From Candidatus Omnitrophota bacterium (lineage in GTDB: Bacteria; Omnitrophota; Gorgyraeia; JACQQV01), in contig JACQQV010000021.1 of assembly GCA_016206785.1 (NCBI GenBank), positions 63,509 through 127,508 of the forward strand: a stretch of DNA of 64,000 nt, written 5' to 3'. A program made the translations under genes and the position numbers. Positions 1 to 15,444 of this stretch are shown piece by piece. The notes under the pieces are model-generated. The model was not told the DNA's origin. It ran no database searches and worked only from the letters and a program-made list of their open reading frames with translations. Position 1 is the first letter of the stretch, and each line of letters opens with the position of its first letter.

Positions 1-46
1 TCGTCCACACCCTTCAGTTTTTCATTGAGGAGAAATGGCCACTCCC

Positions 47-1844
47 CTAGGAGGGAATCGAAAAGAGTTGCCAGAAGCGCTCCGACGCCCTGATAATAGA
101 GGGGAAGGAGTTCTTCTTGAAATCGATTTTCAATATCGCGGTGACGTTTCATTTTGTCAAGAAAGGAATCAGCAAATGGATATCCCCAGGCATGCTTTCC
201 GAGAGCGTAAACCAGGGCCTTCTGGTTTTGGGGGGAGACGCTCTCTACCTGTCTCAAGACATATCCGAATATTCGATCCTGTTTCAAACGCATCCGAAAG
301 GGTAAACCTTCAAGAGATCCTATGAGTCCCTCGACGAAATAAGGCTGATCTTCTTGACCCAGAGAACTCGCCCAATAATCGATCCTCTTCAAGAAAGCCT
401 TCTCGGAAGAACTCCACGCATTGCCGATCTCCTTAAGATAAAAAGGTTGATACATCCTGTCTAACTGTTTGACCCAAAGGAAAAGTTTTTCGAGATTTTC
501 CAGTGTCTCAGGGCGATAGACCATGTCTTGGCTTAAACCAAGATGGAAGTCGAACCGTTCGGAAGGAGATAAGCGCATATCCAATGCCTTTATTAAGTCT
601 GAAAGTTGGTTAAGATCCTGACCATGGCGATACGCAAGGGCCCACCCCAATTGACGATAGGAATACCCTCGATGCTTCAAGGAAAGGGCGAATTCTTTGA
701 ACCTCAGGAGATTCAGTTCACCCACACATCCCATCCCTAAAAGCAAAATAAGAATACCCAAAGAGACCTTTTGAAAGATTCTTGAGAAGTTTCCTAAACG
801 GACAAGTGCCAGAGCGATCACAGCAAAGAAAAAAGGAAAAAGAGGAACATAATAGCGGAATTCATAGATCCCCAGATGGAATCGACTGAGGCTTGCAGCG
901 GATAGGAAGAAGAGGGGGAACAGAAAAAAGAAATAAATTTTTTTATTCTCCTTTTCAAACTGGCAGAGGATGCCATAAGAAAAAAAGAGGGCGGCGTAAT
1001 AGACGATGTTGAAAAGTGTTATATGCGATAAGACATGGGTTCCTTCTCGATAATTGAAGGAAAAGAGTTGTATCAAACGAAGCGTCGCCAGTTTCAAGAA
1101 ACGAAAAGGAATAATCAGGGGCCGTTCCACAGAAGAATAGACAAAAGCCTCCTTGACACGATCGAAGCCATGAAAACCATAGAGGCCATTATAGAGTAGC
1201 CAGGGACTGAAACCGACGAGAAAAAAAAGGAGGAAAAGATAAAATTCTTTTTTTCGGAAGAGCCTTCGATCCTCGTAGCACCAGAAGAGAATAAAGCATG
1301 CGAGACTGACGACCTGCTGATAACTGAAATAAGTGCCGAATCCTTCTACAAGACCTAACCAGGCTGCACAACGCAGAGAATGTTTTCCATCGTACAGAAT
1401 ACGAAAGAGGAAGAAGAGTCCGAGTGCCGTAAAAAGAAGGGATTCGGCATGAACCCCCATTGCATACATCGCATAGAGGGTAAGATACGGAGGTGAAAAA
1501 AGGTAAAGGAGCGCTATATAAAGAGCTGCTTTCCTTCCAAAAAAGCGCTTCATGAACAGAGCCCATGTGAGGAACGTCCCCAATTGGAAAAAGAGGGCCG
1601 TCAGGCGAAGGACAAAAACACTTTTCCCAAAGACAAGAAACGAGGGGACCGTCAGGACTCCATAGACCAGGCTCCCGCCACTGTAGTGATCTGCAGCATA
1701 ATCAAAAAAGGGGATCTTTAATCCCTGGATGAGTTCTTTGGCAATGGTTCCTCGCTGGAGTTCTTCTGTGAAAGGCTCTGGGAAACAGTAAAGAAGGTGG
1801 AGAATTCGGGTGAGCAGAAAAACAATGGCGAGAAGAAAAATCAT
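47..1844 (-). CDS. GT-C fold membrane glycosyltransferase (ArnT/PMT-like, GT39/GT83-type), ~599 aa; absent from the supplied ORF track
   Basis: Manual minus-strand translation from ATG (revcomp of cat 1842-1844) to TAG (47-49) gives an uninterrupted ORF: MIFLLAIVFLLTRILHLLYCFPEPFTEELQRGTIAKELIQGLKIPFFDYAADHYSGGSLVYGVLTVPSFLVFGKSVFVLRLTALFFQLGTFLTWALFMKRFFGRKAALYIALLYLFSPPYLTLYAMYAMGVHAESLLF... It has at least 10 hydrophobic helices. The N-terminal region resembles ArnT/PMT-family polyprenyl-phosphate-sugar transferases. Its start abuts the stop of the upstream rSAM gene (TAAATG). Confidence 0.7.
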
Positions 1845-2930
1845 TTACGGGGCGGGTCGTCTCAAGCGCTCCTCGGCCAGAGCGAGCGCTTCGTAGTAAG
1901 GAACAGGGGCATCGAAGTTGTCCGCCTCCCCCCATCCATCCCGAGGGCAGCCACGGTAAAGGGGATGAAGACTTTTTCCGTCGGAAGGCTCTTTTTTCGC
2001 ATAAGCATCAAACCAATCAAGAAGGGTGCGCCACCCCTCGTGAACGGTTCCCTTCATTAGATTATACTTAGGGAAAGGAAAACTGACGCAAAAATTCATC
2101 TCCCCATAGGGAGTAATCGCGCAGGAGTTTTGGGCAGCCCGGCAATTCATCCGCCCTTTCCATCGCCTCGGTCCTTCCTCTCCTTTCTCGAGCGGTTTGT
2201 GGTAAACAAGAGGAAGGGGATCTTGAAGAAGTTGAGCCGCTTTGTCAGGATCGAGGCGGTAAACAAGCGGCTCGAGTGAACCGTCCGACTTGGGATGAAT
2301 TACGGTACTGGTTACGGCTCGGATTCCCCACCCCTTGGCCATCGCCTGCATCCTCTCCACTTCCTCAACGTTCACAGTCATGGCAGGAATGATGAGCGTT
2401 ACGGGGATCTTCTTCTTGATCAACCGCTCAATTCCAGAGATACATTTAGAGAAGGAGCCTGGAACAGAGGTCACTCTTTCATAAATCTTCCTTGTCGCTC
2501 CATAAAGTGAGAGGTCGACCTCCAGAGGAAGGAGAGATTGGAGACAATCGGCAATTTCCTCTGTCAGGAAGGTCCCATTTGTTTTCAGGGTAACGGCGAA
2601 TCCCTCCTCTTTAGCGCGAGTCAAAATGTCAAGAAAGTCTCTCCGCGTAAACATCTCTCCGCCTGTCAGGGTTAAAGAAAGGCATCCTTCTGTTCGGAGT
2701 TCTTTAAAAATAGAAATGATTTTCTCCGTCGGCATCTCCTCTTTCTTGGCCCTATGGGTAGGATTATAGCAATGGACGCAGCGGAGATTGCACCCGTAGG
2801 TCAGTTCCATAGTCGCCTCTAAAAGGGTCCGTGAGGATTCTGTTTTGCTAACGACGTTATCCCAAAACTCGATAGGAGAACGCTCCGGGATCGAAGGGGT
2901 TTTAGGATCTAGCGAGGGCATAGGCTTCAT
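1845..2930 (-). CDS. radical SAM/SPASM-domain peptide maturase-like protein (PqqE/MftC-like), 361 aa
   Basis: ORF track. Carries the CxxxCxxC motif LTYGCNLRCVHCYNP and a C-terminal Cys-rich SPASM-like region (CRAAQNSCAITPYGEMNFC). Paralogous to the two rSAM genes at 4040-6087. Confidence 0.8.
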   Translation of the reverse strand: MKPMPSLDPKTPSIPERSPIEFWDNVVSKTESSRTLLEATMELTYGCNLRCVHCYNPTHRAKKEEMPTEKIISIFKELRTEGCLSLTLTGGEMFTRRDFLDILTRAKEEGFAVTLKTNGTFLTEEIADCLQSLLPLEVDLSLYGATRKIYERVTSVPGSFSKCISGIERLIKKKIPVTLIIPAMTVNVEEVERMQAMAKGWGIRAVTSTVIHPKSDGSLEPLVYRLDPDKAAQLLQDPLPLVYHKPLEKGEEGPRRWKGRMNCRAAQNSCAITPYGEMNFCVSFPFPKYNLMKGTVHEGWRTLLDWFDAYAKKEPSDGKSLHPLYRGCPRDGWGEADNFDAPVPYYEALALAEERLRRPAP

Positions 2931-3831
2931 CAGGACGCGCCGCCTCCTTTAGAAAAGAAATAGCGCTTTGTTCTTTCACAAATCCGAATTGATAGCATGG
3001 GACACTCGAAAAAAGCTCTTCACAGAAGGCGAGCGCTTTTTGAATCCGTCCGCCATCCCAGTGTGGGAGGAAAAGTTGTGGGAGAAGAACCTCTGGGAAG
3101 TCTGACAGTGAAAGAGGCTTAAGAGAATTCTGAGAAGCGTGCTGAAGAAAAAAAAGTCCCCTAAGAGGCGCCGATTCTTGAGAGATTCGGAATGTATCCC
3201 CTGGCCACGGAGTTCCATGAAGGAAAAAAGAAGCGCCATCCTTTCGAATAATGACGGTCTCATCGCTCAAGATAGAAACGCCTCCTGTTCCAAGAAACAG
3301 ATGCGCAAGCGTACTCTTTCCCGAGCCAGAAGGACCCACAAAAGCTCTTCCCTCTCCCCCTTCTCGAATCCCAAGTCCATGGACAACGACCCCCTCTCCT
3401 TGACTTAAGAGGTGCACAAGAAGAATCTGCCCTAAGGGCTTCATAAATTCTGTAAAGGGCCAGCGGGGCTTTATCGGCGGAAAGAGTCTATGGAGAGGTC
3501 CAGAAACCCATCCAGGGGCAGCATAGACTTCACCTTCCGAGAAATCTTTCGTAAGGTGAGCAAGGAACTGTCTCTGCTTTGTCTTTGAATGAAAGGTTTC
3601 GATCCAATAATGGCCATCGCTTTCGTAAAGGGCCCAATGGTCTTTCAGTTCAAAAAGGACCCTTTCTTTTAAGAAATCGGGGAAACCGTTCTCGCAATGA
3701 ACCGTCAGATGAACCCTTGGTTTCCCCCGAAGAGGAAAAAGATCGTACCTGAAGGGAAAATCTCGTGGATGAGAATTTTCCCACTCAATGTGAAATCCAA
3801 TTCCTCCGATTTCGAGACTGAAAGAAGGCAT
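2902..3831 (-). CDS. HPr kinase C-domain-like P-loop protein (HprK-related kinase, as found in PqqD/lasso-peptide-kinase contexts), 309 aa
   Basis: The C-terminal half carries VVHGLGIREGGEGRAFVGPSGSGKSTLAH, which resembles the HprK P-loop GxSGxGKS(E/T). There is no N-terminal HPr-kinase regulatory domain. It lies 8 nt downstream of the candidate precursor ORF. Confidence 0.6.
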   Translation of the reverse strand: MPSFSLEIGGIGFHIEWENSHPRDFPFRYDLFPLRGKPRVHLTVHCENGFPDFLKERVLFELKDHWALYESDGHYWIETFHSKTKQRQFLAHLTKDFSEGEVYAAPGWVSGPLHRLFPPIKPRWPFTEFMKPLGQILLVHLLSQGEGVVVHGLGIREGGEGRAFVGPSGSGKSTLAHLFLGTGGVSILSDETVIIRKDGASFFLHGTPWPGDTFRISQESAPLRGLFFLQHASQNSLKPLSLSDFPEVLLPQLFLPHWDGGRIQKALAFCEELFSSVPCYQFGFVKEQSAISFLKEAARPDEAYALARS

Positions 3832-3842
3832 CTAAGGGGTAC

Positions 3843-4034
3843 CTAAGACGAGATCGCGCTGTTTCCCTGCGTTCTACTCCAACTTCGGCATCCATTTGCC
3901 CTACAGGTATTCGTACCGCTGTCAGAAGCAGAGGTCCCATTGGTGGCGCACTGAGAGAGGATCGCCTGTTCATGGTTTAACCGGATTCTAAAAATTTTCG
4001 GTGTTTCATACATCCTTTTCATTGTCTCTTCCAT
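3843..4034 (-). CDS. candidate RiPP precursor peptide, 63 aa (MEETMKRMYETPKIFRIRLNHEQAILSQCATNGTSASDSGTNTCRANGCRSWSRTQGNSAISS)
   Basis: A small ORF wedged between the rSAM gene (ends 4040) and the HprK-like gene (starts 3831). Minus-strand upstream sequence is gataAGAAGGAGGTaaagacaATG, a near-perfect Shine-Dalgarno about 7 nt before the ATG. The peptide has a charged leader-like N-terminus, then a Ser/Thr/Gly/Asn-rich segment with 3 Cys, and ends in Ser-Ser. Confidence 0.45.
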   Translation of the reverse strand: MEETMKRMYETPKIFRIRLNHEQAILSQCATNGTSASDSGTNTCRANGCRSWSRTQGNSAISS

Positions 4035-4039
4035 TGTCT

Positions 4040-5119
4040 TTACCTCCTTCTTATCTTTTCAGCCAAAAGATGCGCTGTCTGACAGAAATGATCGACCGGC
4101 ATCTCACTCTCTCCATTTTCAAAACGTGCCGGAAAAGGCATCTTCCCGCACATCGAATAGACCGTACACTGCCGACAGGGCGAATCGGTTTGATAGGTCA
4201 TTGTACGAATTTTTGGAAAAACTTCTTGGATCGCTTCCTGAAAGGAGTAATGTTTTAATGAAACTCTCGGCTCCCCAATAAAAGTACACGTTCCAAGCTC
4301 TCCCCAAGCCGAAACATGAAACGTATTGGTCCCGCAACCGCAGCGGTAAAGCCGATCGGTCGGCTCATCCGAAATTTCCACACAACGATCCTCGGTATCT
4401 ATGTCCTCGCCATTTATTTCAAGTTCAACAATTTCCTCTGGAGTGAGTCGATAGGCGCAGGGCTTCAAAGAACCATTCAAATCAGGATAGATATCGGTAC
4501 TGAAACGGAACTCCAGCCCGAAACTTTCGACCAGTTCTTTAATCTCATGGAGCCTTCCCCTGTTGAGCGTCATCGCTTTTGTTTTCACCTTGACCGGAAG
4601 TTTCCGTTCCACAAGAAGCCGCAATCCTTCAACAAATCGCTTGAAGGATCCGGGAACCTGAGTCACCGCGTCGAAAACCTCTTCCGTTCCTCCGTGGCAA
4701 CTCGTCTCAATCAAAAAAGGTGGGTCCTTCGCAAGCCGATCCGCAATCTCGGGAGTGATTATGGTGACATTCGTAAAAAGAATGAGAAGAAATCCTTTTT
4801 TCTTTGCATAGTCATAAATATCAAAAAAGTCCTTCCGCATGAAGATTTCGCCACCCGTAAGACAAAGCCAGAGACACCCCGCTTCATGGATTTCATCGAT
4901 CATCCGAAGGACCTCTTCATAAGAAAGCTCTTTTTGAATGTCCTGAGGGTTATTGTGGCAGTCGGTATAGCAGTGGACACAACGGATATTGCATTTATAG
5001 GTAAGTTCGATCTGGCCCCGGATTGGCATCCTTAAGTCATATCCCTTGTCATTGATCGCACTGCTGAAATCATGATACTCTATCTCAGGAATCGTTTCCT
5101 TCATCTTAAGGCCTCTCAC
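4040..5119 (-). CDS. radical SAM/SPASM-domain protein, 359 aa
   Basis: ORF track. Carries IELTYKCNIRCVHCYTD (CxxxCxxC) and SPASM-like C-terminal cysteines (CRQCTVYSMCGKMPF, CGCGTNTFHVSAWGELGTCTF). Confidence 0.8.
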   Translation of the reverse strand: MRGLKMKETIPEIEYHDFSSAINDKGYDLRMPIRGQIELTYKCNIRCVHCYTDCHNNPQDIQKELSYEEVLRMIDEIHEAGCLWLCLTGGEIFMRKDFFDIYDYAKKKGFLLILFTNVTIITPEIADRLAKDPPFLIETSCHGGTEEVFDAVTQVPGSFKRFVEGLRLLVERKLPVKVKTKAMTLNRGRLHEIKELVESFGLEFRFSTDIYPDLNGSLKPCAYRLTPEEIVELEINGEDIDTEDRCVEISDEPTDRLYRCGCGTNTFHVSAWGELGTCTFIGEPRVSLKHYSFQEAIQEVFPKIRTMTYQTDSPCRQCTVYSMCGKMPFPARFENGESEMPVDHFCQTAHLLAEKIRRR

Positions 5120-6087
5120 GGAGTTGAAGAAACCGCTTTGATTGGGATAAATCCGTTCTTCTTGAACATAAACTCCTTTTTAGGAAACCGGCATGGAAAA
5201 TGGGGAAGGTGATTGTAAAATCCATCGTGAAAAGAACCTTTTCGAAGGTCGTAACCCTTCATCCGGTTCCCGGAACAGAGTTGAAGCATCCCATACGCAT
5301 CGATATGAAAATTAAAGAAGCCTGATTCGCATTGGTAGGTTTCTGCCTCTCGTAATTGGATTTCCTTTTCCCGAAGCATCTGCGGATCTTTTTCCTCGAT
5401 CTCTCTCAGTTCTTTTTCAGAAAGTTGATATTCAAAAACATCCTCTGAGCCATCCAGGCGGTTCCGGATCTCCTCGCCAAATTTGAAGGAAACGTTTCCC
5501 AGACCCTTCACAAAAGCCCTGATCTTCAGAATCTCATCCCGATTCACCGTGAGTCCCGTCACCTTCAAAACAAGGTGGAGGTTTCTTTCTAAAAGAAGGT
5601 TGATCGCCCGTAATACTTTCTGAAAAGAGCCTTCTCCCTGCGTCACCTTTTCAAAAATCTCTTTCGATGTGGCATGAAGACTGATCTCGACGGAAAAAGG
5701 AGGATTTTCTTTCAGAAAATCGGAAACCTCCTCGGTAATCAAGGACCCATTGGTAAAAAGGGTGATTAAAAATCCCTTGTCCTTGGCAACCTTATAGATC
5801 TGGAAAAAATCTTTTCGCATAAAGATTTCGCCACCCGTCAAGGTAAGCCAAAGACATCCTCCTTTATGAAGTTCACCTAAGATCCGTAGGACTTCCTCAG
5901 TTTGAAGTTCTTTGGGAAAATATTGAGGATGATTATAGACATCTGTGTAGCAATGGATACAGTGAAGATTGCAGCGGCAAGTCAATTCCCATTGTCCGAT
6001 AAGAGGGAGTCTTCCCCTCTCACTCTTTGCGACGAGCCGCTTGAAAAACTCACGATCCGTAACAGAAGAAAGAAAATCGCATGCCAC
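5116..6087 (-). CDS. radical SAM/SPASM-domain protein, 323 aa
   Basis: ORF track. Carries WELTCRCNLHCIHCYTD (CxxxCxxC) and C-terminal Cys residues (CESGFFNFHIDAYGMLQLCSGNRMKGYD). It overlaps the downstream paralogue by 4 nt, which suggests translational coupling. Confidence 0.8.
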   Translation of the reverse strand: MACDFLSSVTDREFFKRLVAKSERGRLPLIGQWELTCRCNLHCIHCYTDVYNHPQYFPKELQTEEVLRILGELHKGGCLWLTLTGGEIFMRKDFFQIYKVAKDKGFLITLFTNGSLITEEVSDFLKENPPFSVEISLHATSKEIFEKVTQGEGSFQKVLRAINLLLERNLHLVLKVTGLTVNRDEILKIRAFVKGLGNVSFKFGEEIRNRLDGSEDVFEYQLSEKELREIEEKDPQMLREKEIQLREAETYQCESGFFNFHIDAYGMLQLCSGNRMKGYDLRKGSFHDGFYNHLPHFPCRFPKKEFMFKKNGFIPIKAVSSTP

Positions 6088-6092
6088 CCGCT

Positions 6093-6395
6093 CTATTCTC
6101 CCTTTTCCGCACCCGCAAAATGTTTCGGCTCTATGAGTCCTTCCCTCCTCAGTTTTTTAAGGAAGGAAAGCACATCATGCTTCACCCTTTTGGGTTCTGC
6201 TTCGAAGTTTTGTTCAATGTGTGTGATAAGTTCCTGAACGGTTCTACTCCCGTCCAACGCCTCCCAGATCGCTGCGCCAACAGGAGTGAGTTTGAGGAGG
6301 TCTCCCTCATCCTGATCCACGAGGATCGCTTCTTCCTCTACCCGTCGCCAAGGAATTCTTCCATTCTTCTCGAAGATATCCGTAAGTCTAAACAT
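6093..6395 (-). CDS. PqqD-family (RRE-like) small protein, 100 aa
   Basis: MFRLTDIFEKNGRIPWRRVEEEAILVDQDEGDLLKLTPVGAAIWEALDGSRTVQELITHIEQNFEAEP... matches the PqqD/RRE pattern: P..R..GE..L......L.N..A..IW.L.DG..T..E. Confidence 0.65.
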   Translation of the reverse strand: MFRLTDIFEKNGRIPWRRVEEEAILVDQDEGDLLKLTPVGAAIWEALDGSRTVQELITHIEQNFEAEPKRVKHDVLSFLKKLRREGLIEPKHFAGAEKGE

Positions 6396-7947
6396 GAAAA
6401 TGGATGAGGCGTAAAAAATAATTTTTTGTCTCTAGCCAAAGAAGAAAAAGGATTTTCCTTGCTTCTCTTCCCATTTTGTAGGTGAGGCCCTCACGAAAAT
6501 AGATCCAAAAAAGACGGAGATGTAGAAGTAAGGGATGGAAACCGAGACGCGCCGCTTCAAGTAGGTTCTCTTTTGCCAGACGAGACTCTTTTTTCTTGAG
6601 AAAGGCGGAACCGATCCAGAATTTCAGAATCGCCTCCGGCCCTTTGAGTTCGAGCGACTTCCGGAAAGCACTCAGGGCTCTATCCCACTCTCCCTGCTCG
6701 AAAAAAAGAGACCCTATCCCATAATAAGCCGTGGCCAGTCTGGGATTCTTCGAAAGGGCCTCTTCATAATAAAAGAGCGCCTGGGAAAAATCTTTCTCCG
6801 CCCTAAATGTATGGCCCAAACCGCAGAGTGCATGGGCGTGATTCGGGTCGAGGGTAAGAATCTTTTTGTACTCTTCCTCTGCCTTTTTCCATTGACCAAG
6901 ATTCTGATAGGCCGGTCCAAAATTGTTGTAGGCGGTGGCGTAGGTGGGATCCGCGGAAACCGCTTCTCGATAAAGTCGGGAGGCCTCTGTTTTCTCTCCC
7001 CTTTTTAGAAAGAGCAAAGAAAGATTGTAAAAGCTTGCAGCATCTTTTGGATTGACCCCAAGGGCCTTTCGATACTCCAAAATCGTCTCCTCCACCTTCC
7101 CCTCCTCTTCAAAGGCTTGTGCAGATCTTTTGTGATGATAAGCATCGTTTGGAGCGGAGGGGTCTCGGATAAGTTGTGCAAGGGCGTCTCCAAAATATTT
7201 ATAAGGAAGTGGAGTAAATCCCCCCTCGACAGAATAGGCAATCGTGACACAATCACTCCGGATACCCTTTGATCGCAAGGCGTCGACAACATTCTCTGGG
7301 AAGAGCCACGGTTTCTTACAGCGAGGGTCTTCATCCCCATGTTCTAAAAACCCTGAGATGAGGAAATCGGTATCAATATCAAGAAGAACCTCTTCTTCAA
7401 TAGTGGGAAGGTTCTGAAGAGTGCAGACAATCAATGGAAAGCCATAAAGTGTTGCCTGAGCCTTTGTTCCCTCAATACGGATATCGGTAAACGCTTCTGG
7501 ATGGTTTCTCCGAAATTCTCGAAAGATATAACCCATCTCTTTTTCCCAAGAAACCCCTCGGGGGGCTTCCGGGGTCGCCCAATAAAAAGCCCGAAGAAGG
7601 CCCTGCCGGAGAGCAGGGCAGATATAATTTCCGATATGGACGAAGGACTCTGTCCCTCGATCTGTGAAGTTCCAAAAGATCTTTTGTTGGGTAAGCGCTT
7701 CTAATTCTTGAGGAGAGGAGATACTGAGGAGATCGGAGAAGGACCTCTCAGGAATCCAATTGAAGTCGATGTGGGCATCGATATGGAGGAGGATGCGGTT
7801 TGAAAAGTTCCCTCTCTGCCAGGCCCAGAGGGCCTCATCATGATCTTCCATCAGGGTGACGGCAGGGAGAGGATCAATTCCTACCCGATCGTCTTGGGGA
7901 GTTGAAGACCTTCTTAAAGAAGGTTGGGTCGCTAACGCGTCGGTCAC
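6388..7947 (-). CDS. fusion protein: N-terminal UPF0489-like domain (putative metal-dependent hydrolase fold) plus C-terminal TPR repeats, 519 aa
   Basis: The N-terminus carries MEDHDEALWAW...ILLHIDAHIDFNW, which resembles the EDHHEVL...HFDSHPD signature I associate with UPF0489. The C-terminus carries at least 6 TPR-like repeats (AYNNFGPAYQNLGQWKKAEEEYKKILTLDPNHAHALCGLGHTF...). Confidence 0.6.
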   Translation of the reverse strand: MTDALATQPSLRRSSTPQDDRVGIDPLPAVTLMEDHDEALWAWQRGNFSNRILLHIDAHIDFNWIPERSFSDLLSISSPQELEALTQQKIFWNFTDRGTESFVHIGNYICPALRQGLLRAFYWATPEAPRGVSWEKEMGYIFREFRRNHPEAFTDIRIEGTKAQATLYGFPLIVCTLQNLPTIEEEVLLDIDTDFLISGFLEHGDEDPRCKKPWLFPENVVDALRSKGIRSDCVTIAYSVEGGFTPLPYKYFGDALAQLIRDPSAPNDAYHHKRSAQAFEEEGKVEETILEYRKALGVNPKDAASFYNLSLLFLKRGEKTEASRLYREAVSADPTYATAYNNFGPAYQNLGQWKKAEEEYKKILTLDPNHAHALCGLGHTFRAEKDFSQALFYYEEALSKNPRLATAYYGIGSLFFEQGEWDRALSAFRKSLELKGPEAILKFWIGSAFLKKKESRLAKENLLEAARLGFHPLLLHLRLFWIYFREGLTYKMGREARKILFLLWLETKNYFLRLIHFHV

Positions 7948-7950
7948 CGA

Positions 7951-8235
7951 TTATTTCTCTCGGATGATTCCGGTTTCCTTAAATTGCGCCAGAAGCCCCA
8001 AAAGATCTTTCTCTGCAACGTGAGGATCTATCTCAAATTCGGAGATAACCGTCTCGCAGACCTCTCGGACCGATTTCTTTCCATCAATCAGTTCCCAAAT
8101 CCTCGCCCCTACCTCATTCAACGTGAAGATGGCAGGTTCTTCCCCTAAGGTTTGACGAATAGGGACAAGGACCGTTTCTTCCGCGATTTTCCTTGATACA
8201 ATATTGGGAGATTTTTCGTAACTTGTTTCTAGCAC
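7951..8235 (-). CDS. PqqD-family (RRE-like) small protein, 94 aa
   Basis: ...PNIVSRKIAEETVLVPIRQTLGEEPAIFTLNEVGARIWELIDGKKSVREVCETV... fits the PqqD pattern. This is the second stand-alone copy in the locus. Confidence 0.65.
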   Translation of the reverse strand: MLETSYEKSPNIVSRKIAEETVLVPIRQTLGEEPAIFTLNEVGARIWELIDGKKSVREVCETVISEFEIDPHVAEKDLLGLLAQFKETGIIREK

Positions 8236-8278
8236 TGTAAATAACCTCGTTTCATCATAAAAGATTTAGACCGGTTTG

Positions 8279-9085
8279 TCAAGGTTTTTGTGGGGTGAGA
8301 ATCGCATTGCAGTTGCTGAAATCCATCTCCACAACTTTAAAGTTCGAGTTCTCTATCTCACTCAAAAGCTCCGAGGGTTTGCTGAAAATGTGCCAATAGT
8401 GACCCATAAAGCAGACGTCTCCTTCTTCTAGCTCCCGATTGCCGCCAGAAAGGATTGCAAGCCACTTTTTGAGCCGGAACTTCCAACCCTTTTCCCGGAA
8501 ATCATCTCTACCACAAAACTCTAGATAAAAAAATCCGTCGTCTTTGAGATGAGATCGCATCTTTCTTAAAAAGGCGATCCGCCTTGTGCGGGTAGGAATT
8601 TCGCTATACATCGACTGGCTCAGAAAAAGCGCGTCATGCTTTCTTGCCGGTGATAAACTATCAAGTACATTTCCCACTTCAAAGTGGCAATTTTTTAAGG
8701 AAAGGGCACGGACATGTTCTTTTGCTCTTTCTACAAGATCCTGGGAGGTCTCGATTCCCGTAACCTCAAATCCTAATTTCGCCAAGGCGAGGGATTCCCG
8801 ACCACCGCCAGACATCAGTACAAGACACTCCTTTTTTCCTTTTAAATATTTTGTCACAAATTGAGATTCTTCTGGGCTCAGTCCCCTCGTTCGTACCGCT
8901 TCCCCCGCCAAAGCCTCTGAAAAGTCCCTCCGATTATAAAACTGTTCAACAAATTTTTCGAGATCTTTAGGTTTTGAGAGAACTAGTACAAGTGACCCAA
9001 AGGCTGAAGAAATCTTTTCCTGAAAACGATTCAAGAGAAGGTCGATGCGCACCAAAACGGAAACAAGGAAAAACCGAGCACTCAT
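8279..9085 (-). CDS. class I SAM-dependent methyltransferase, 268 aa
   Basis: Carries the motif I-like segment CLVLMSGGGRESLALAKLGFEVTGIETSQDLVERAKEH, and DALFL/post-I motifs. Confidence 0.65.
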   Translation of the reverse strand: MSARFFLVSVLVRIDLLLNRFQEKISSAFGSLVLVLSKPKDLEKFVEQFYNRRDFSEALAGEAVRTRGLSPEESQFVTKYLKGKKECLVLMSGGGRESLALAKLGFEVTGIETSQDLVERAKEHVRALSLKNCHFEVGNVLDSLSPARKHDALFLSQSMYSEIPTRTRRIAFLRKMRSHLKDDGFFYLEFCGRDDFREKGWKFRLKKWLAILSGGNRELEEGDVCFMGHYWHIFSKPSELLSEIENSNFKVVEMDFSNCNAILTPQKP

Positions 9086-10161
9086 CTATTTTTTAAGAGG
9101 GGTTCAATGACTTCTACCAAGGCTTGGGCAGCGAGTCGATGACCACGTTCATTGAGATGAAACGGGTCTCCTTTTCTATAAAGTTTTTCTCTCAGGTGAC
9201 GTTGTAAACTTTCCCGGATATCGATCAGCGGAACCTGCAAGTTGTGCGAAATGCGTCGGAAACGATAAAAGGAGGGACGGATTTTTAAGATCCCCAGCTC
9301 GTGAAGATCCGGAAAATAGGCAAACAACACTTGAGCGTGAGAGCGACGTGCTAACTGAACCAGCTCGCGCAACCGTTGTTCCGCCTCCTGCCAGTAGCGC
9401 GCCTCCCGAGATCCTGTTGCGTTGTAAGAGACCTGAAGCGCCCAAAAAGAAATAACGGAACCGATGCGCTGATCCAAAAATTTCAATAAGAAACTGTGGG
9501 GCAGCAAGGAAGAGTAGAAATTGTGAAAAGGCGACGATGGAGAAGAAACCTCGGGTTCCGGTAAAAGACAAAGCCTCCCTTGATCATCGACGTTAAAGAG
9601 GGATGGGTAAATGTCGTTCCTATAGAAATTAACAATAACAATATCCGGTCTCAAAAGAGGAAGGAGTTCCTTAAAGATACGAACTTCCTGTTCAGTATTA
9701 TAATTATCAGAGGCGGCATTGAATACAATAGGAGGATTACGTGGAAATTTTTCCTTGAGTAACACTTCAAGTCTTTTACAAAAAGTTGTCTCAAAAGGAA
9801 CCCCGTAGCCAAATGTGATAGAGTCTCCCAAACAGAGGACGACATCGTCTTTTTCTTTCACCTTCGGCCATTCCGGTCCCCGCCAACCCTGTGTATTGAT
9901 TTCATACCATGCCCCTTGCCAGCGAATGCGTGCTCCTCGTCGATACCGGTGGACGACCTCAGGATCTGCGACAAAAAGACCGGGAATGTCGGACATGAAA
10001 AGATAAGGGTCTGGCGCATTTTCCGGCAAGGCCTTGATCACCTCCGCTTCCGGCATACGACGAGAGACAAAAACAAACCGATAAAATCGGAGGATCCCTT
10101 CTGCCGCCAAGCAAGCGAGGCACAAGCCGACTACCACAAGAAAAAATCGTGTACGAGTCAC
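9082..10161 (-). CDS. SGNH/GDSL-family hydrolase with N-terminal signal/TM segment, 359 aa
   Basis: Carries VVLCLGDSITFGYGV (the GDSx block). The N-terminus MTRTRFFLVVVGLCLACLAAEG is hydrophobic. The start codon, by my reading of the sequence, is GTG (cac 10159-10161). Confidence 0.65.
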   Translation of the reverse strand: MTRTRFFLVVVGLCLACLAAEGILRFYRFVFVSRRMPEAEVIKALPENAPDPYLFMSDIPGLFVADPEVVHRYRRGARIRWQGAWYEINTQGWRGPEWPKVKEKDDVVLCLGDSITFGYGVPFETTFCKRLEVLLKEKFPRNPPIVFNAASDNYNTEQEVRIFKELLPLLRPDIVIVNFYRNDIYPSLFNVDDQGRLCLLPEPEVSSPSSPFHNFYSSLLPHSFLLKFLDQRIGSVISFWALQVSYNATGSREARYWQEAEQRLRELVQLARRSHAQVLFAYFPDLHELGILKIRPSFYRFRRISHNLQVPLIDIRESLQRHLREKLYRKGDPFHLNERGHRLAAQALVEVIEPLLKNR

Positions 10162-10166
10162 GGCTG

Positions 10167-10175
10167 ATTATACCA
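10167..10175 (-). promoter_or_regulatory. extended -10 promoter candidate (TGGTATAAT on minus strand) for the SGNH/methyltransferase/RiPP operon
   Basis: Plus-strand attatacca 10167-10175 is minus-strand TGGTATAAT. It sits only 6 nt upstream of the GTG start at 10161, which implies a leaderless or near-leaderless transcript. Confidence 0.35.
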
Positions 10176-10178
10176 CTC

Positions 10179-10207
10179 TTGACCTCCTGAAAAAACAGAT
10201 TTATGCT
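10179..10207 (+). promoter_or_regulatory. sigma-70-type promoter candidate for the 10231 gene: TTGACC-N17-TATGCT
   Basis: TTGACC at 10179-10184, a 17-nt spacer, then TATGCT at 10202-10207, about 24 nt before the ATG. Confidence 0.4.
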
Positions 10208-10230
10208 AAACTATATCGAGAAAGAGAAGG

Positions 10231-12126
10231 ATGGTAGAAACAGTGAAGCCTATTGGTGTTTTAACCGATCTTCTTCAAATAACGGACATTCCAGAGATTA
10301 TCGATCTTTTGATCGCGTCCAAGAAGGCCCGTTTCACCATTGAAGGCTTCAGCATGTACCCCACCCTCCGAGTAGGAGACATCGTTGAGGTGGACCCCCT
10401 AACAAAAGAAACGCTTGAAGTAGGAGACCTTGTTGTTTTTCAAAAAGAAAAGAAACTCATCTGTCACCGCCTGGTAGAGATTTTTGAGAAAAACGGGGAG
10501 GCGTGGATTAAGACAAAGGGGGATACGGTCGAGGAGAGTGACACCCCACTCGCCCTTCGTCAGATCCTGGGAAAGGTGACGCGCATTGAGCGAGACGGAA
10601 TTCCTCGGATCCCCTCGGCCGTTCCTCAAAAACTTTCCTTTGCAGAAATCATCTTCTTCTCTGCCTATCGGCAATTCGGGGGAAAACTCAGACCGAAACT
10701 GAGAACAGTTTTCTTACGCAGTCTCTCTTCTCTTTTATTCCGCCGCGTGTATCGCTTCCTGTTCCGTCCCGATGTGATTTATTCTGTCAGAATTCCAACT
10801 GCTTCGACTCCTGATCCGAAATTCTGGCGGTCTGTTCAAAGTCTCCCGGGGGCGAATGAGTCTTTACAGGACGCTTCGGTCTATCGCTTTTTTGCAAAGG
10901 TAGGCAAAAATGTCGTTGGAAGTCTTGAGGTGCGGACTCTCGATAAAACCGCTTCGCAATGGAGGGTTTCCCATCTTTTCGTGAGGGCAAGGTACCGGGG
11001 GTGCCACGTTGCAACAACACTCCTGAGAAGATCGTTTCAGAGGCTCAGACGACAAGGAGCCTCCTTATTAAGCATAGAAGTGGGTCCTCAAAATCGTCCC
11101 GCACTTTCCCTTCTAAAACAACTAGGCTTCGACGACGCCGTACAAAAAGATCCTTTCGTCCTTCAGAAAGACCTTTCGTTCCCGCTCAAGCGCTTAAGAG
11201 GCGAAAAAGAACTGCAACCGTTTCTTTATCACGCTCTTCCCTCTGATACGCTCAAAGAAAGCTTCCTCAGGAGCGTCGCAAAACACCTCTTCTTCGAACA
11301 GGCCCTTCTTGAGATAGACACCGTTTTCAAAAATGCGGGAATACCTTTTATCGTACAGAAGGGAATGGCACTTGCGTATACCCTTTACCCCGACCCTGCG
11401 ACGCGACCGATGGTGGATATCGATCTGTATCTACGTAAAAACGATGTCCCCTCGGCCATATCCCTTTTAGAAGGACTCGGCTATGAACTGGGAGCAGCCA
11501 AGTTTCGAGAAGAACTGATCACCTTCGGGGGAGAGCTCAGCTTCCACAAAAAAAATGCCCCTTTTGTTGAACTCCACTGGTGCCTTGAACAGTATGAGCG
11601 ATTGAAAGGAATTGTAAAAGTTGACGAGGAAGACCTGTGGAAAAGGACTGTCTCCTATACGATTTCAGGAAGAAAATTTCTGACCCTCTGTTCAGAGCAT
11701 CAACTGCTCGCGCTTTCCATCCACCTCGGTCTCATTCATCGGTTTCGTGGCTCTCTCAAGTGGTTTCTGGACATCGATCAGTTCGTCATGAAATTCGGGG
11801 AGGACCTGGATTGGGAGGAACTTTTTCAAACCGCACGGCGATGGGGAATTGAACGGGTGTTTTGCCAAGTGCTCCTTGCAACCCAGGAGCTCTTCAACAC
11901 CCCCCTTCCTCCTCTTCCGATTCAAAATTCTTCATTCTTCCTGAGACATCCCATCTTTCAATGGTTCCTCCCAGATCGTCCCTCCGACCGCCTCCGGGTC
12001 CTCTTCCGGATCTTCTTCCCGAGCCGGGAATGGCTCATCTACCGATATCGCCTCAAACGGCGCGACCTCATCCCCTTCCACCGCTTCCTCCATCCTCTCT
12101 TTGTTCTTATCGGCAAGACAAGGTAG
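10231..12126 (+). CDS. tri-domain protein: N-terminal S24/S26-type peptidase-like domain, central GNAT acetyltransferase, C-terminal nucleotidyltransferase-like (NTP_transf_5-type) domain, 631 aa
   Basis: The N-terminus carries EGFSMYPTLRVGDIVEVD...DLVVFQKEKKLICHRLVEIF...KTKGDTV (compare signal-peptidase/LexA G-S-M-x-P-T-L...GD motifs). The central region ...SLEVRTL...VRARYRGCHVATTLLRRSFQRLRRQGASLLSIEVGPQN is GNAT-like. I assign the C-terminal region to uncharacterised nucleotidyltransferases. The upstream RBS is GAGAAGGatg. Confidence 0.6.
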   Translation: MVETVKPIGVLTDLLQITDIPEIIDLLIASKKARFTIEGFSMYPTLRVGDIVEVDPLTKETLEVGDLVVFQKEKKLICHRLVEIFEKNGEAWIKTKGDTVEESDTPLALRQILGKVTRIERDGIPRIPSAVPQKLSFAEIIFFSAYRQFGGKLRPKLRTVFLRSLSSLLFRRVYRFLFRPDVIYSVRIPTASTPDPKFWRSVQSLPGANESLQDASVYRFFAKVGKNVVGSLEVRTLDKTASQWRVSHLFVRARYRGCHVATTLLRRSFQRLRRQGASLLSIEVGPQNRPALSLLKQLGFDDAVQKDPFVLQKDLSFPLKRLRGEKELQPFLYHALPSDTLKESFLRSVAKHLFFEQALLEIDTVFKNAGIPFIVQKGMALAYTLYPDPATRPMVDIDLYLRKNDVPSAISLLEGLGYELGAAKFREELITFGGELSFHKKNAPFVELHWCLEQYERLKGIVKVDEEDLWKRTVSYTISGRKFLTLCSEHQLLALSIHLGLIHRFRGSLKWFLDIDQFVMKFGEDLDWEELFQTARRWGIERVFCQVLLATQELFNTPLPPLPIQNSSFFLRHPIFQWFLPDRPSDRLRVLFRIFFPSREWLIYRYRLKRRDLIPFHRFLHPLFVLIGKTR

Positions 12127-12147
12127 CTCATTCGTCGTTCGGCGTTC

Positions 12148-12248
12148 GGGACTAAGTCCCTATGACGGTAAGACTTGTTCCTTGCCAAGGCGGGACTTAG
12201 TCCCGCCTTCATGGGGGGAAAGTCTAAGGCGAAGAGGGACTTAGTCCC
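12148..12248. repeat. three copies of the 13-nt palindromic motif GGGACT(W)AGTCCC at exact 44-bp spacing between convergent genes
   Basis: Copies at 12148-12160 (GGGACTAAGTCCC), 12192-12204 and 12236-12248 (GGGACTTAGTCCC). The middle copy is embedded in a 25-nt near-perfect palindrome, CAAGGCGGGACT-T-AGTCCCGCCTTC. Confidence 0.6.
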
Positions 12249-12350
12249 GGTTTGCTCTGTTTGCTGTTTAGGACAGGTAAGCGGTGCTCGAACCACACCA
12301 GGGGCTACTTATCCTTGGGGACAAATTAGAGCCAGGTCGGAAAACGTCCC

Positions 12351-13206
12351 TCAGACGCGGACCCAGCGAATTCCTTTTTCCTTGCGGAACCAAGTCTCCT
12401 GACGTTTGGCGTATTGGCGGGTTAAGCGTTGAATATGGGTAATAGCCTCTTCGAGGGAAGATTCCCCTTTGAGGTAAGAGAAAAGTTCTTGAAGCCCGAT
12501 GATTCTTTTTGCAGTAAAACTCAGTCTCTTCCGGAGAAGCCTCTTAACTTCCGCAACAACATCATTGCGAATCATCTTTTCCACCCGACGATCGATCCTC
12601 TGATAAAGAACTTTTCGGGGGTGGCGTAATCCGATTTTCTGAATCCGAAACAAAGCTGAGAACCCACCTCCCCCCTCTGCGAACTCCGAGGGTTTTCTCC
12701 CGGTGACTTCGTAAATCTCAAGGGCGCGAATCAGACGATAGGTATCGTTGGGATGAATCTTTTTTGCCCGACGGGGATCGATCGCACGTAATCTTTCGTA
12801 CAAATAAGCGTTTCCCTTCTCCTTCACAAGCCTTGAATATTTTTTCCGAATCGTGGGATCGGCTTTGACGGGAGCGTGCTTTCCTCCCAAAAGGGCCTTG
12901 AGATAAAAACCGCTCCCCCCCACAAGGATTGGCACCTTTCTTCGGCGTGCAATGTCTTGAATAACACTTTTTGCGCGTTGGGAAAATTCAGCCGCGCTAA
13001 ATTCCTTATGTAGAGGGAGAAAACCGATAAGATGATGGGGAATTTTCTTTTGATCCTCTGGGAGGGGTTGGTTGGTGAGGATTGGAACGCCTCGGTACAC
13101 CTGCATGGCGTCGCAGGAGATAATTTCACCTTTGCATCGTTTCGCCAGGCGGAGGGCAAGCCGGCTTTTCCCGCTGGCGGTAGGGCCAACAATGACAATA
13201 AGTTTT
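12351..13206 (-). CDS. miaA: tRNA dimethylallyltransferase MiaA
   Basis: LIVIVGPTASGKSRLALRLAK...ISCDAMQVYRGVPILTNQP... The track ORF extends to 13298 and overlaps the upstream ATPase gene. The likely true start is a GTG (VKKLIVIVGPTASGKS) at about 13206. Confidence 0.85.
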
Positions 13207-13207
13207 T

Positions 13208-14023
13208 TCACCTCGCTTCCTGAACAACTTCCTGGATGGTCTGCTCGTCGATGGAAGTGGCTTTTTTGCCCAATCCTGAGAGAAGGGACAGATTGCATAA
13301 AGTATTGATCTTCCTCGGAATGCCTCCGCTATGTTCGTAGATGAGCTGGATCGCATCGTCCGTAAAGATCGGGTCCTCTCGACCGGCGGTCGTAAGCCGG
13401 GTCTGGATATAATGGCGCGTCTGCTCTTCGTCCAAACCCTCCAGATGGCATTTGATCTCGATCCGCTGCGAAAAGGGCTTGAATCGGTTCACATGTTCCC
13501 TCAACTCAGGTTGGCCGAACAAAAGGAGGGTCAGTAAAAACTGGTCGTTTGACTGAAAGTTGAGGAGGAGCCGCAATCCCTCCAGCACAGAAGGATCTTC
13601 GATCACATGGGCCTCATCCACAATAATGACCGTCTCGCTCCCATCCTTCAAATTATCGTAAAGGATATCCTTCAGCTCATTGAGGAGAAATGTCGCCACA
13701 AGATCCGATTTCTTCGTCGGGAGGTTCTTTCCGCCCCCTAATGCTTGAACGATTGCAGCCAGAAGTTCAATGTAATCCAGTTTTGGATTCCGGATGAAGG
13801 CGATCTTATATTTCTCTCCAACCAGCCCTTTCAACAGGGCTTCCCCCAATAACGTCTTTCCACATCCAAAGATCCCTGTCAACATGGCTGCCCCCACCTT
13901 CTCTTGGACGGCATACAAGAGCCTTGAAAGGGCTTCGTCATGTTGGGGGGAGGCGTAGAAGAATCGGGGATCGGGAGTATTTTGAAAGGGCATGAGATTG
14001 AATTTCCAATATTCTTTATACAT
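13208..14023 (-). CDS. ExeA/MshM-like AAA ATPase (putative secretion ATPase of PEP-CTERM loci), 271 aa
   Basis: Walker A is LTGIFGCGKT and Walker B is VIIVDEAH. The gene lies next to the PEP-CTERM/exosortase locus. Confidence 0.7.
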   Translation of the reverse strand: MYKEYWKFNLMPFQNTPDPRFFYASPQHDEALSRLLYAVQEKVGAAMLTGIFGCGKTLLGEALLKGLVGEKYKIAFIRNPKLDYIELLAAIVQALGGGKNLPTKKSDLVATFLLNELKDILYDNLKDGSETVIIVDEAHVIEDPSVLEGLRLLLNFQSNDQFLLTLLLFGQPELREHVNRFKPFSQRIEIKCHLEGLDEEQTRHYIQTRLTTAGREDPIFTDDAIQLIYEHSGGIPRKINTLCNLSLLSGLGKKATSIDEQTIQEVVQEAR

Positions 14024-14459: not shown

Positions 14460-15431
14460 CTACACCTCCTTTTGTTTTGCGTGAACGTCTCTAAATTGAA
14501 ACTCTGTTTCTACCCTTTGAAAAGGTTTCCCGTCCAACTCGACATACGGATAGAAAAAAATATTGACCGGCTCGCCCTTCTGTTTTGGAACCAGTTGGAT
14601 ATTACGCCCTGTACTGATGAGAAGACGGTTTGCATCATAAGTTCCGAAGTAATACTCCCGCTTCTCTGGGTATTTCCATGCTTCCGAGGCATCCACGGAA
14701 ATCCACCCCTTTCCGTCGACATAAAACTCGGCCCAGCAGTGATACCCTGGAATTTTACCCTCTGATTCCTGTTCAGGGATAGGGATCCCGATTTTAAAAC
14801 GCGAGGGAATTTTACTCGCCCGCGCCAAGGAGATAAAGAGCGAATGAAAATCGGTGCAGTTCCCTTTGCCGACAAGACAGGCTCGCGCCGTATCCCCATT
14901 TCCCCATCCCGGTGTCGTCTTGTCATACTGCATATGGGAAAGGACGTAGTCATAAATGGCCCTTCCCTGTTCTAAAGGAAACACCTTCCCTTGGGTTACT
15001 TCTTTGGACAACCCCTGAATTCTTTCATCCACCACCATCCATTGGCCCGAGCCGAGGTGGAGACGTCTTTGAAAGGGGGTCTCCTGCAAGGGGTTTCTTC
15101 TTTCCTCTACAGTCACATGGTAGGTAATGGCAACGTCGATCTTTTGGGGAAGTGGCGGCTTCAGAAAAAGATGGAGGATCTCATTGCCATAGCGAGGTTC
15201 CTGAAAGATTTGATAAGGGGAAGAGGCGACGATTTTTCGGTCCAGGATCCTCTGGTTGGCCTCTGTGCGTGCCAAAGGGATCCAGATCCGGATCTGTTTT
15301 GCGTCGGGGGGAATTTCCTGAATCAAGGCATGGTAAGTGAGCTCAAACTCCCGCTCTGATTCTCGGGCTTCACTTTTTGAATCACTCAATATCAATAATG
15401 GGGTTACAATAAGTACTATCCATTTCCTCAT
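14460..15431 (-). CDS. transglutaminase-like cysteine protease domain protein with signal peptide
   Basis: Carries GKGNCTDFHSLFISLARASKIPSRF...GYHCWAEFYVDGKGWISVDASE, the Cys-His-Asp transglutaminase core. The likely start is MRKWIVLIVTPLLILS at about 15431, preceded by a GAGGAG RBS. The track ORF is over-extended to 15524. Confidence 0.75.
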   Translation of the reverse strand: MRKWIVLIVTPLLILSDSKSEARESEREFELTYHALIQEIPPDAKQIRIWIPLARTEANQRILDRKIVASSPYQIFQEPRYGNEILHLFLKPPLPQKIDVAITYHVTVEERRNPLQETPFQRRLHLGSGQWMVVDERIQGLSKEVTQGKVFPLEQGRAIYDYVLSHMQYDKTTPGWGNGDTARACLVGKGNCTDFHSLFISLARASKIPSRFKIGIPIPEQESEGKIPGYHCWAEFYVDGKGWISVDASEAWKYPEKREYYFGTYDANRLLISTGRNIQLVPKQKGEPVNIFFYPYVELDGKPFQRVETEFQFRDVHAKQKEV

Positions 15432-15444
15432 CTCTTTTTTCTCC

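Follow-up and report, generated by a model that had tools for sequence, protein, structure and literature searches.

The locus

The window analysed here, a stretch of 64,000 nucleotides (nt) from contig JACQQV010000021.1 (positions 63,509 to 127,508) of a Candidatus Omnitrophica metagenome-assembled genome (MAG), carries on its minus strand an operon with three genes for radical S-adenosylmethionine (rSAM) enzymes. Between two of the operon genes lies a small open reading frame (ORF) at 3843..4034 (−), which very probably encodes the translated precursor of a peptide made by ribosomes and modified after translation (RiPP). In the order of transcription, the operon encodes a GDSL hydrolase, a methyltransferase, a PqqD-family protein, an arginase-like domain fused to TPR repeats, a second PqqD-family protein, rSAM A, rSAM B, the peptide, a ScmC-like protein, rSAM C and a PMT_2 glycosyltransferase.

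The ORF consists of 63 codons and a stop, and its product, MEETMKRMYETPKIFRIRLNHEQAILSQCATNGTSASDSGTNTCRANGCRSWSRTQGNSAISS, is annotated in the source MAG only as a hypothetical protein. It occupies 192 of the 208 nt that separate the stop of the upstream rSAM B gene, at 4040, from the start of the downstream ScmC-like gene, at 3831. The minus strand of 3700..4200 reads ...AAGATAAGAAGGAGGTAAAGACAATGGAAGAGACAATG..., with ...GAAAAGATAAGAAGGAGGTAAAGACAATGGAAGAG... around the Shine-Dalgarno (SD) sequence and the start codon. The SD sequence, AGAAGGAGGT (4042..4051, minus strand), is separated by 7 nt from the ATG at 4034 and falls within the final codons and the stop of the rSAM gene upstream. Residues 1–28 (3951..4034), the putative leader, include the Y9-x-x-P12-x-I14 motif (3993..4010) and the segment LNHEQAILS. 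The putative core, residues 29–63 (3846..3950), contains the only three Cys of the peptide (C29, C44 and C49), R50 (3885..3887) directly after the last of them, and a C-terminal N-S-A-I-S-S, with Ser63 at 3846..3848.

An earlier note on this DNA, which had proposed a precursor role for the ORF, described it accurately: re-reading of the sequence bears out the 63 codons, the 7-nt SD spacing, the three Cys, the Ser-Ser end and the filling of a gap of some 200 nt inside the operon. Its ranking of the SD as the strongest in the window needs qualifying: five copies of the 8-mer AAGGAGGT are present there, compared with 3.0 expected by chance. The motif alone is therefore not significant, and we rejected the ribosome-binding site as statistical evidence for the ORF; what matters is its position in front of a conserved reading frame. 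That the ORF is more than a chance frame is demonstrated by its conservation. Retention of the N-terminus MEETMKR in the homologue from locus L088 speaks for the ATG at 4034 as the start codon.

The ScmC-like gene starts 11 nt past the precursor stop (3832..3842 lie between) and lacks a recognizable purine-rich SD, as does its counterpart in locus L003. The contrast with the strong SD of the precursor gene suggests either translational coupling or a deliberately low expression of enzyme relative to substrate. A scan of the region against Rfam matched no RNA family, and a promoter and terminator scan returned no promoter-like or terminator-like site within the gap. The best sigma-70-like match in the region (TTGACA-17-TATGAT, 11/12 positions; 8254..8282, minus strand) falls within the end of the methyltransferase gene, a little upstream of the first PqqD gene, and might serve the core cassette as an internal promoter.

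Selection on the leader and the peptide family

A 60-amino-acid (aa) homologue with 58% identity occupies the same slot, flanked by the orthologues of rSAM B and of the ScmC-like protein, in groundwater metagenome contigs L003–L007, and the slot is likewise filled in L008, another Omnitrophota MAG; the similarly placed small ORF for which the earlier note had suggested looking is thus present in syntenic loci. The 19 residues YETPKIFRIRLNHEQAILS are identical in the window, L003 and L008. The DNA underlying them carries 8–12.5 synonymous differences over 21 compared codons, and replacements are confined to the variable residue before the first Cys. By Nei-Gojobori counting in this orthologue comparison, the proportion of nonsynonymous differences (pN) in the leader is 0.04–0.05, versus 0.56–0.90 for synonymous differences (pS), whereas pN reaches about 0.5 in the 21 codons after the leader, where the Cys and the C-terminus are nevertheless kept. 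The leader is under strong purifying selection and the core is hypervariable, the classic pattern of a RiPP precursor, which effectively excludes a chance ORF. Almost all nucleotide changes within the leader leave the encoded residue unchanged.

A HMMER profile built from two of the peptides and run against 1.84 billion representative proteins (E<=1e-3) retrieved 135 matches from small-protein clusters, nearly all of 55–80 aa. By profile, the window peptide counts as a member of the family (86.5 bits, E 5.5e-25). Among the 131 short matches, 113 end in Ser, most of the others looking truncated, and 103 have exactly three Cys. Column statistics drawn from 112 full-length members yield the leader consensus (K/R)(K/R)xYxxPx(I/L/V)x(R/K)(V/I)xLNxEQA(V/I)LSxCS and the overall architecture KKxYxxPx(I/L)xRVxLNxEQA(I/V)LSxCS, followed by C, by C(R/K) and, at the C-terminus, by (D/N)S(G/A)xxxS, with the tail more broadly described as (D/N/S)-(S/G/A)-x-x-x-S. 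The spacing is strikingly regular: the Y of Y-x-x-P lies exactly 20 residues ahead of the first Cys (Cys1) in 109 of 111 peptides, Cys1 and Cys2 are 15 residues apart in 72 of 106, and 99 of 106 have R or K as the residue after Cys3. The window peptide matches all the family modes, with C1-x14-C2, C2-x4-C3, R after C3 and a C-terminal Ser. The conservation of leader, Cys spacing and terminal Ser that the earlier note had proposed to check is thus borne out and, together with the synteny and the selection on the leader, supports its view of the ORF as the precursor peptide of the surrounding operon.

Neither the window peptide nor eight relatives had a significant match in Pfam or NCBIfam (the best was CefA, E 0.054), and family members, where the sources name them at all, are labelled hypothetical proteins. 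We found no description of the family in the full-text literature, a coverage which leaves aside subscription-only papers, so that an earlier description is possible. Several clusters (L097, L103, L110, L113, L150, L159, L163 and L165) contain two to four tandem, divergent precursor genes. Beside the three-Cys copies, these tandem loci also encode a recurrent five-Cys variant (CSLTTMSALANSLxNGCRANGQCQPPGxPGGCKKSNVxGxxCRDSGPRLS).

Association with a conserved cassette

The association of peptide and enzymes was sampled from both sides. From the enzyme side, 80 genome loci were retrieved with an alignment of nine ScmC-like sequences. Among the closest of these (L008–L022), 13 of 15 have a member of the peptide family encoded on the same strand; L035 and L047 have one as well, and these peptide-bearing loci represent Omnitrophota, Nitrospirae, Methylomirabilota, ANGP1, Aminicenantaceae and Deltaproteobacteria. 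Syntenic or cluster-linked homologues of the window peptide are found in L003, L008–L012, L014, L015, L017 and L018, and the cassette common to the peptide loci on this side is PqqD, arginase-TPR, PqqD, rSAM A, rSAM B, ScmC and rSAM C. The peptide gene itself shifts within the cluster in L009, L010, L014 and L018, lying, for instance, after the ScmC gene in L010 and after that of rSAM C in L018. That it moves and yet stays in the cluster indicates selection on the gene rather than on a spacer. From the peptide side, 80 metagenome loci were drawn from 158 confirmed relatives. Among the 26 of these that are at least 8 kb long, 22 carry ScmC together with three rSAM genes, 21 a PqqD gene and 21 an NTP_transf_5 domain. 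The gene is real, its leader is specifically under purifying selection, and it belongs to a large, conserved family, widespread among uncultivated bacteria, which co-occurs with the cassette.

A simpler cassette, consisting of PqqD, one SPASM-like rSAM, the peptide and a ScmC-like protein, is present in L019–L022, L035 and L047. Its precursors are of a sister type, KKxYExPxL...EEVLAxGCK...C...C...GS, again with three Cys and a C-terminal Ser. These single-rSAM cassettes have no arginase, and their precursors no basic residue after Cys3.

Four long peptide loci (L118, L120, L143 and L148) and six shorter ones (L121, L123, L125, L132, L141 and L146) encode a peptide with intact leader and core and no cassette gene within 6 kb; such peptides may be orphan precursors served in trans or may belong to another enzyme set. 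L017 (VBPP01000351.1, 2.8 kb), which holds a family peptide and a cassette fragment, is a contig binned as Thaumarchaeota. Given its shortness, the binning is doubtful and an archaeal occurrence should not be assumed. In dozens of loci from gut Clostridia and Acutalibacteraceae MAGs (L023–L087), the match to the ScmC-like protein is limited to its P-loop half. In two of these loci (L027:2602-2766 and L078:2740-2934) there are small ORFs, MKKTYETPVAEKIEFRYNDQVVASGTSCTQIWYGYGDFITPNCTHEVAVPDSGY for example, with a similar KxYxTP start and an aromatic last residue, which probably represent a different RiPP family.

Neighbouring genes

The three rSAM enzymes, all with a PF04055 domain, are rSAM A (323 aa; 5116..6087), rSAM B (359 aa; 4040..5119), with a SPASM-like Cys-rich C-terminus, and rSAM C (361 aa; 1845..2930), which has PqqE among its best solved relatives. 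The ScmC-type protein of 309 aa (2902..3831), a putative peptide kinase with an HprK/PEPCK-type P-loop fold, has ScmC of the SynChlorMet system as its best NCBIfam match. Two small proteins are putative leader-binding RiPP recognition elements (RREs): PqqD-family protein 1 (94 aa; 7951..8235; PF05402, 66.1 bits) and PqqD-family protein 2 (100 aa; 6093..6395; PF05402, 68.3 bits). For both, the best NCBIfam matches are the PqqD chaperones of lasso peptides (45.7 bits for protein 2). Elsewhere, the PqqD domain (PF05402) is fused to ScmC-like homologues of 407–486 aa (P0015, P0022, P0023, P0029, P0032, P0035 and P0041), and in L003 the TPR protein, too, bears a fused PqqD domain.

Between the two PqqD genes lies the 519-aa protein (6388..7947) in which a peptide-arginase-like N-domain (UPF0489/FlmR-OhkR_N) is fused to TPR repeats. 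Upstream are a SAM-dependent methyltransferase (268 aa; 8279..9085; Methyltransf_25/31), whose best NCBIfam match, a daptide-type RiPP methyltransferase, stays below the cutoff at 37.5 bits and whose homologues are present in most long peptide loci, and a GDSL/SGNH hydrolase (359 aa; 9082..10161; PF13472). The latter has no homologue in any related locus compared, and its membership in the cluster is uncertain. The plus strand carries, in divergent orientation, a tri-domain protein of 631 aa (10231..12126) which combines a signal-peptidase-I-like domain (S26/S24; TIGR02228, 59.1 against a cutoff of 51.85) with a GNAT (PF00583) and an NTP_transf_5 domain (PF14907, 157.8 bits), and has a homologue in 21 of the 26 long peptide loci. 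At the other end, directly after rSAM C, the PMT_2 membrane glycosyltransferase gene (1..1844, minus strand; PF13231) is represented by the 5′ part of a 689-aa gene that runs off the window. The gene is complete in L001 and conserved in L003, L096, L134 and L138. A Transglut_core protein of 354 aa with a hydrophobic N-terminus (14460..15524, minus strand) lies beyond miaA (12351..13298) and outside the cluster. It is not among the called genes of the syntenic loci L001 and L003 and is probably unrelated to the RiPP pathway.

A proposed maturation pathway

For every chemical step, the pathway outlined here draws on homology or covariation. The roughly 28 N-terminal residues would serve as the leader, whose Y-x-x-P-x-(I/L) and LNxEQA(I/V)LS motifs would be bound by the stand-alone PqqD proteins acting as RREs, and these would offer the remaining 35 or so C-terminal residues, the core, to the tailoring enzymes. 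PqqD-type B1 proteins of lasso peptide systems bind leaders with nanomolar affinity (PMC5067487).

The core would then be modified by the sactisynthase-like rSAM enzymes, its three conserved Cys being the likeliest sites. Each of the three enzymes has SkfB, a sactipeptide thioether synthase, as its best solved relative (E 3.8e-15 for A over residues 25–272, 9.7e-09 for B and 3.9e-14 for C), with rSAM A aligning through the twitch region, and their sub-threshold matches include MftC, AlbA, StsB, PapB, ScmE/F and WgkB. Only rSAM B aligns through its Cys-rich C-terminus to SPASM-type profiles (MftC over residues 28–340 and PapB over 39–325), and a CX10GX4C...CX2CX5C pattern can be read directly from its sequence. 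The lone rSAM of the single-rSAM loci generally scores best against this same enzyme (L019–L022 and L035 by E-value; L047 is fragmented). Thioether cross-links are the leading guess for the modification, and we tentatively propose their formation at the Cys, probably by rSAM B. The earlier note had counted three rSAM/SPASM paralogues, of which the three PF04055 proteins stand and the SPASM label applies only to rSAM B, as a likeness. It had further matched the three Cys with the three enzymes, a one-to-one pairing which we rejected, since the precursors of single-rSAM cassettes also carry three Cys.

For the N-domain of the 519-aa protein, the only match in the Protein Data Bank (PDB) is OspR (8BRP), with MEDHDEAL and LLHIDAHID aligned to MEEHNEAF and LLHVDEHSD of OspR, the alignment spanning the first two of three motifs. 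The window protein and, across four phyla, every homologue with a complete N-terminus contain EDHDEA, DAHID and DIDTDF, which correspond to the three motifs that define peptide arginases (PMC12703449). The PF12640 gathering score of 27.0 is just reached (27.7 bits), whereas the FlmR/OhkR peptide arginase model NF052474 gives 32.9 bits against a curated cutoff of 350. Distinct peptides were tabulated from those loci that allowed a call on whether the arginase domain is there. Arg follows Cys3 in 15 of 16 peptides from arginase-positive loci, and Lys takes this position in all 14 from arginase-negative cassettes, apart from two five-Cys peptides mis-assigned by indexing (Fisher p = 2e-7, uncorrected for phylogeny). 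The simplest reading of this covariation would be that a primary amine is required after Cys3, be it a Lys set by the codon or an ornithine produced from Arg. Because the residue covaries with the presence of the arginase, we consider it fairly probable that the arginase-like/TPR protein hydrolyses R50, the Arg after the third Cys, to ornithine.

The ScmC-like protein would act at the other end of the core. A fold search and an alignment of homologues assign it a two-domain PEPCK/HprK P-loop fold with an invariant Walker A motif. A sequence-only search of the PDB with the ScmC profile returned mostly generic P-loop matches, the HprK/PEPCK fold having come from the fold search. Both the window protein and most of its homologues carry a PF27840 (ScmC) annotation. 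A C-terminal Ser characterizes the window peptide, the great majority of the family and the precursors of the single-rSAM cassettes alike. This near-universal Ser fits the known specificity of the HPr-kinase homologues from lasso peptide clusters, which place a phosphate on the C-terminal Ser of linear precursors and demand little else of the sequence, and, in the case of pseudomycoidin, a nucleotidyltransferase subsequently glycosylates the C-terminal phosphate (PMC8498205). Given the terminal Ser, the HprK-fold enzyme and the NTP_transf_5 domain, phosphorylation of S63 appears to be the most economical hypothesis and one that we cautiously favour; the NTP_transf_5 domain may afterwards decorate the phosphate.

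The signal-peptidase-like domain fused to NTP_transf_5 is the candidate leader peptidase, with the cut predicted after (V/I)-L-(S/A/G). In the 112 full-length members, A-(V/I)-L-(S/A/G) lies family-wide immediately ahead of x-Cys1. Type I signal peptidases follow a small-residue rule at P1 and P3. The fit of the motif to this rule, together with the S26-like domain encoded in the cluster, suggests cleavage after S27.

Alternative explanations

A number of observations weigh against the interpretation of the ORF as a RiPP precursor matured in this way. The neighbouring proteins score far under the curated cutoffs of every named family, and none of the three rSAM enzymes has a match to the Pfam SPASM model even at E<=10. 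The loci L013 and L016 contain ScmC-like genes with no peptide found within the retrieved DNA, and, conversely, 4 of the 26 long peptide loci (L118, L120, L143 and L148) have no ScmC, rSAM or PqqD gene within 6 kb. The three Cys of single-rSAM precursors mean that no role follows from the Cys count for rSAM A and C. With regard to the arginase, the Arg/Lys covariation is partly clade structure, the gene was found with a whole-protein query in only 5 of the 26 long loci, and Arg after Cys2 is common in loci without it, so that not every Arg is a target.

That the ORF is a chance reading frame, and the gap an untranslated intergenic or regulatory spacer, such as an element for mRNA processing or attenuation that separates the rSAM gene from the kinase-like one, might be argued from the ordinary frequency of its SD 8-mer, from the abundance of short ORFs (103 of at least 40 aa overlap window positions 1..14000) and from another ORF of 62 aa which overlaps it in a different frame at 3785..3973. 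However, orthologue substitutions across the leader are almost purely synonymous in the frame of the 63-codon ORF, the 135 profile-detectable relatives share its length and architecture, the association with the cassette persists when the gene changes position, and the gap contains neither an Rfam family nor a promoter-like or terminator-like site. Leader selection, the profile family and the co-occurrence seen from the peptide side effectively refute this explanation, which we regard as exceedingly improbable. It is also very unlikely, if slightly less so, that the ORF encodes a translated peptide which is not the substrate, for instance, an accessory subunit, a scaffold, or an immunity or regulatory peptide, the true substrate being encoded elsewhere or not being a peptide. 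To our knowledge, SynChlorMet-type cassettes have been catalogued without an identified precursor, and the four long loci have the peptide and none of the enzymes; orphan extra precursor genes are, however, common in RiPP systems. Furthermore, the pairing of a conserved leader with a hypervariable core, the two to four tandem divergent copies in many loci and the Y-x-x-P-x-(I/L) motif beside genes for PqqD-family RREs are together the signature of RiPP substrates rather than of accessory proteins, and residues of the core change in step with the presence of a tailoring enzyme.

Finally, the peptide might be a lasso precursor, with the kinase, PqqD and nucleotidyltransferase forming parts of a phosphorylated lasso pathway similar to those of paeninodin and pseudomycoidin. 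Such a relationship would account for the NCBIfam matches of both PqqD proteins to lasso chaperones and for the combination of a Y-x-x-P-x-(I/L) leader with an HPr-kinase-fold enzyme, NTP_transf_5 and a C-terminal Ser (PMC8498205), and the Transglut_core protein at 14460..15524 could be called upon as its peptidase component. This latter gene, however, lies beyond miaA and outside the cluster, no asparagine-synthetase-like cyclase is encoded in the operon or in any syntenic locus, and the family is defined instead by three rSAM enzymes and three invariant Cys. With no cyclase and no B2 peptidase in the cluster, we rejected the lasso assignment, which is extremely unlikely, and retain that of a precursor for the rSAM-centred operon.

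Implications

We rate the system as an uncharacterized class of RiPP with a final product undescribed in the literature covered. More specifically, the peptide family and its cassette may, as a possibility which we entertain with reserve, constitute a hitherto undescribed class of RiPPs with a wide distribution among uncultivated phyla (Omnitrophota, Nitrospirota, Methylomirabilota, Acidobacteriota, Aminicenantes and Desulfobacterota), in which lasso-type recognition and tail chemistry (Y-x-x-P leader, PqqD RRE, HprK-fold kinase acting on a C-terminal Ser, and NTP-transferase) is imposed on a core cross-linked by three rSAM enzymes. If so, the product would be a new scaffold with an obligatory primary amine after Cys3, present as Lys or as Arg-derived ornithine, and the family would supply the long-missing type of substrate for ScmC/SynChlorMet-like cassettes.

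Orphan rSAM/PqqD/ScmC cassettes have been catalogued with no known substrate and have hence been biochemically inaccessible; a precursor makes the pathway testable. It also provides specific rules, namely, a leader motif at a fixed distance from Cys1, three Cys, a basic residue after Cys3 and a near-universal C-terminal Ser. The Arg/Lys switch that tracks the arginase yields a falsifiable prediction of the ornithine site, and its confirmation would extend the short list of precursors for peptide arginases. Were thioether-type cross-links and a phospho(glyco)sylated C-terminus combined in one molecule, phyla whose secondary metabolism is almost uncharacterized would have yielded a new natural-product scaffold.

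Comparison with known systems

The closest catalogued counterpart is SynChlorMet, which shares with the window cassette a PqqD homologue, PqqE-like rSAM proteins and a ScmC-type HprK-like P-loop protein. Comparison was made with the models for ScmC (TIGR04249/PF27840), ScmD (TIGR04248), and ScmE and ScmF (TIGR04250/TIGR04251). These are the best match for the ScmC-like protein and among the better ones for PqqD protein 2 and rSAM C, but are outscored for PqqD protein 1, rSAM A and rSAM B. Membership was rejected on the scores (23 against a cutoff of 125 for ScmC, 27.8 and 44.8 against 100 for ScmD, and 76–87 against 400 for ScmE/ScmF), and the single-rSAM relatives (L019–L021 and L035) likewise remain under the curated cutoffs. 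The window cassette further differs in having three rSAM enzymes together with NTP_transf_5, a methyltransferase and, in this clade, the arginase/TPR protein. NCBIfam and Pfam offer no SynChlorMet precursor model for comparison, and a search of the non-subscription literature on the system returned nothing relevant.

The lasso leader motif is Y-x-x-P-x-L. The systems of paeninodin (PadeK) and pseudomycoidin (PsmK/PsmN) resemble the window cassette in combining a PqqD-type RRE, a Y-x-x-P-x-L/I leader, an HPr-kinase homologue, a nucleotidyltransferase gene and a precursor ending in Ser (PMC8498205, PMC5067487). The lasso-type leader motif and the PqqD-type B1 protein are both present in the window but are insufficient alone for lasso membership: neither a cyclase nor a B2 (transglutaminase-like) peptidase gene was found within 1..12126 or in syntenic loci, and rSAM enzymes and conserved Cys take their place. 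Moreover, unlike the lasso kinases, the window protein is a two-domain, PEPCK-like ScmC, which scores about 19–23 bits with the HprK-related A/B models against a cutoff of 200.

Sactipeptide and ranthipeptide systems (the SkfB, AlbA, PapB and SCIFF maturases) share the Cys-bearing core, the RRE-dependent leader and the rSAM maturases. By contrast, the window cassette encodes its RRE as a stand-alone PqqD protein and not as an N-terminal domain, three paralogous rSAM enzymes are accompanied by kinase, arginase and NTP-transferase tailoring, and no family cutoff is reached. The cassette is not demonstrably a sactipeptide system. As for the peptide arginases, OspR of landornamide and FlmR/OhkR share the three diagnostic motifs with the window protein, which only just exceeds the PF12640 gathering score and, unlike them, is fused to a long TPR array. 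The window precursor lies outside the types listed for these enzymes, which are NHLP, N11P, SCIFF, SCCRRSCN, DD(I/V)LF and MGXRRSSE (PMC12703449). Overall, the cassette resembles a hybrid, in which recognition and tail chemistry like those of phosphorylated lasso peptides appear to be joined with rSAM core chemistry of the sactipeptide and ranthipeptide kind and, in this clade, with a peptide arginase.

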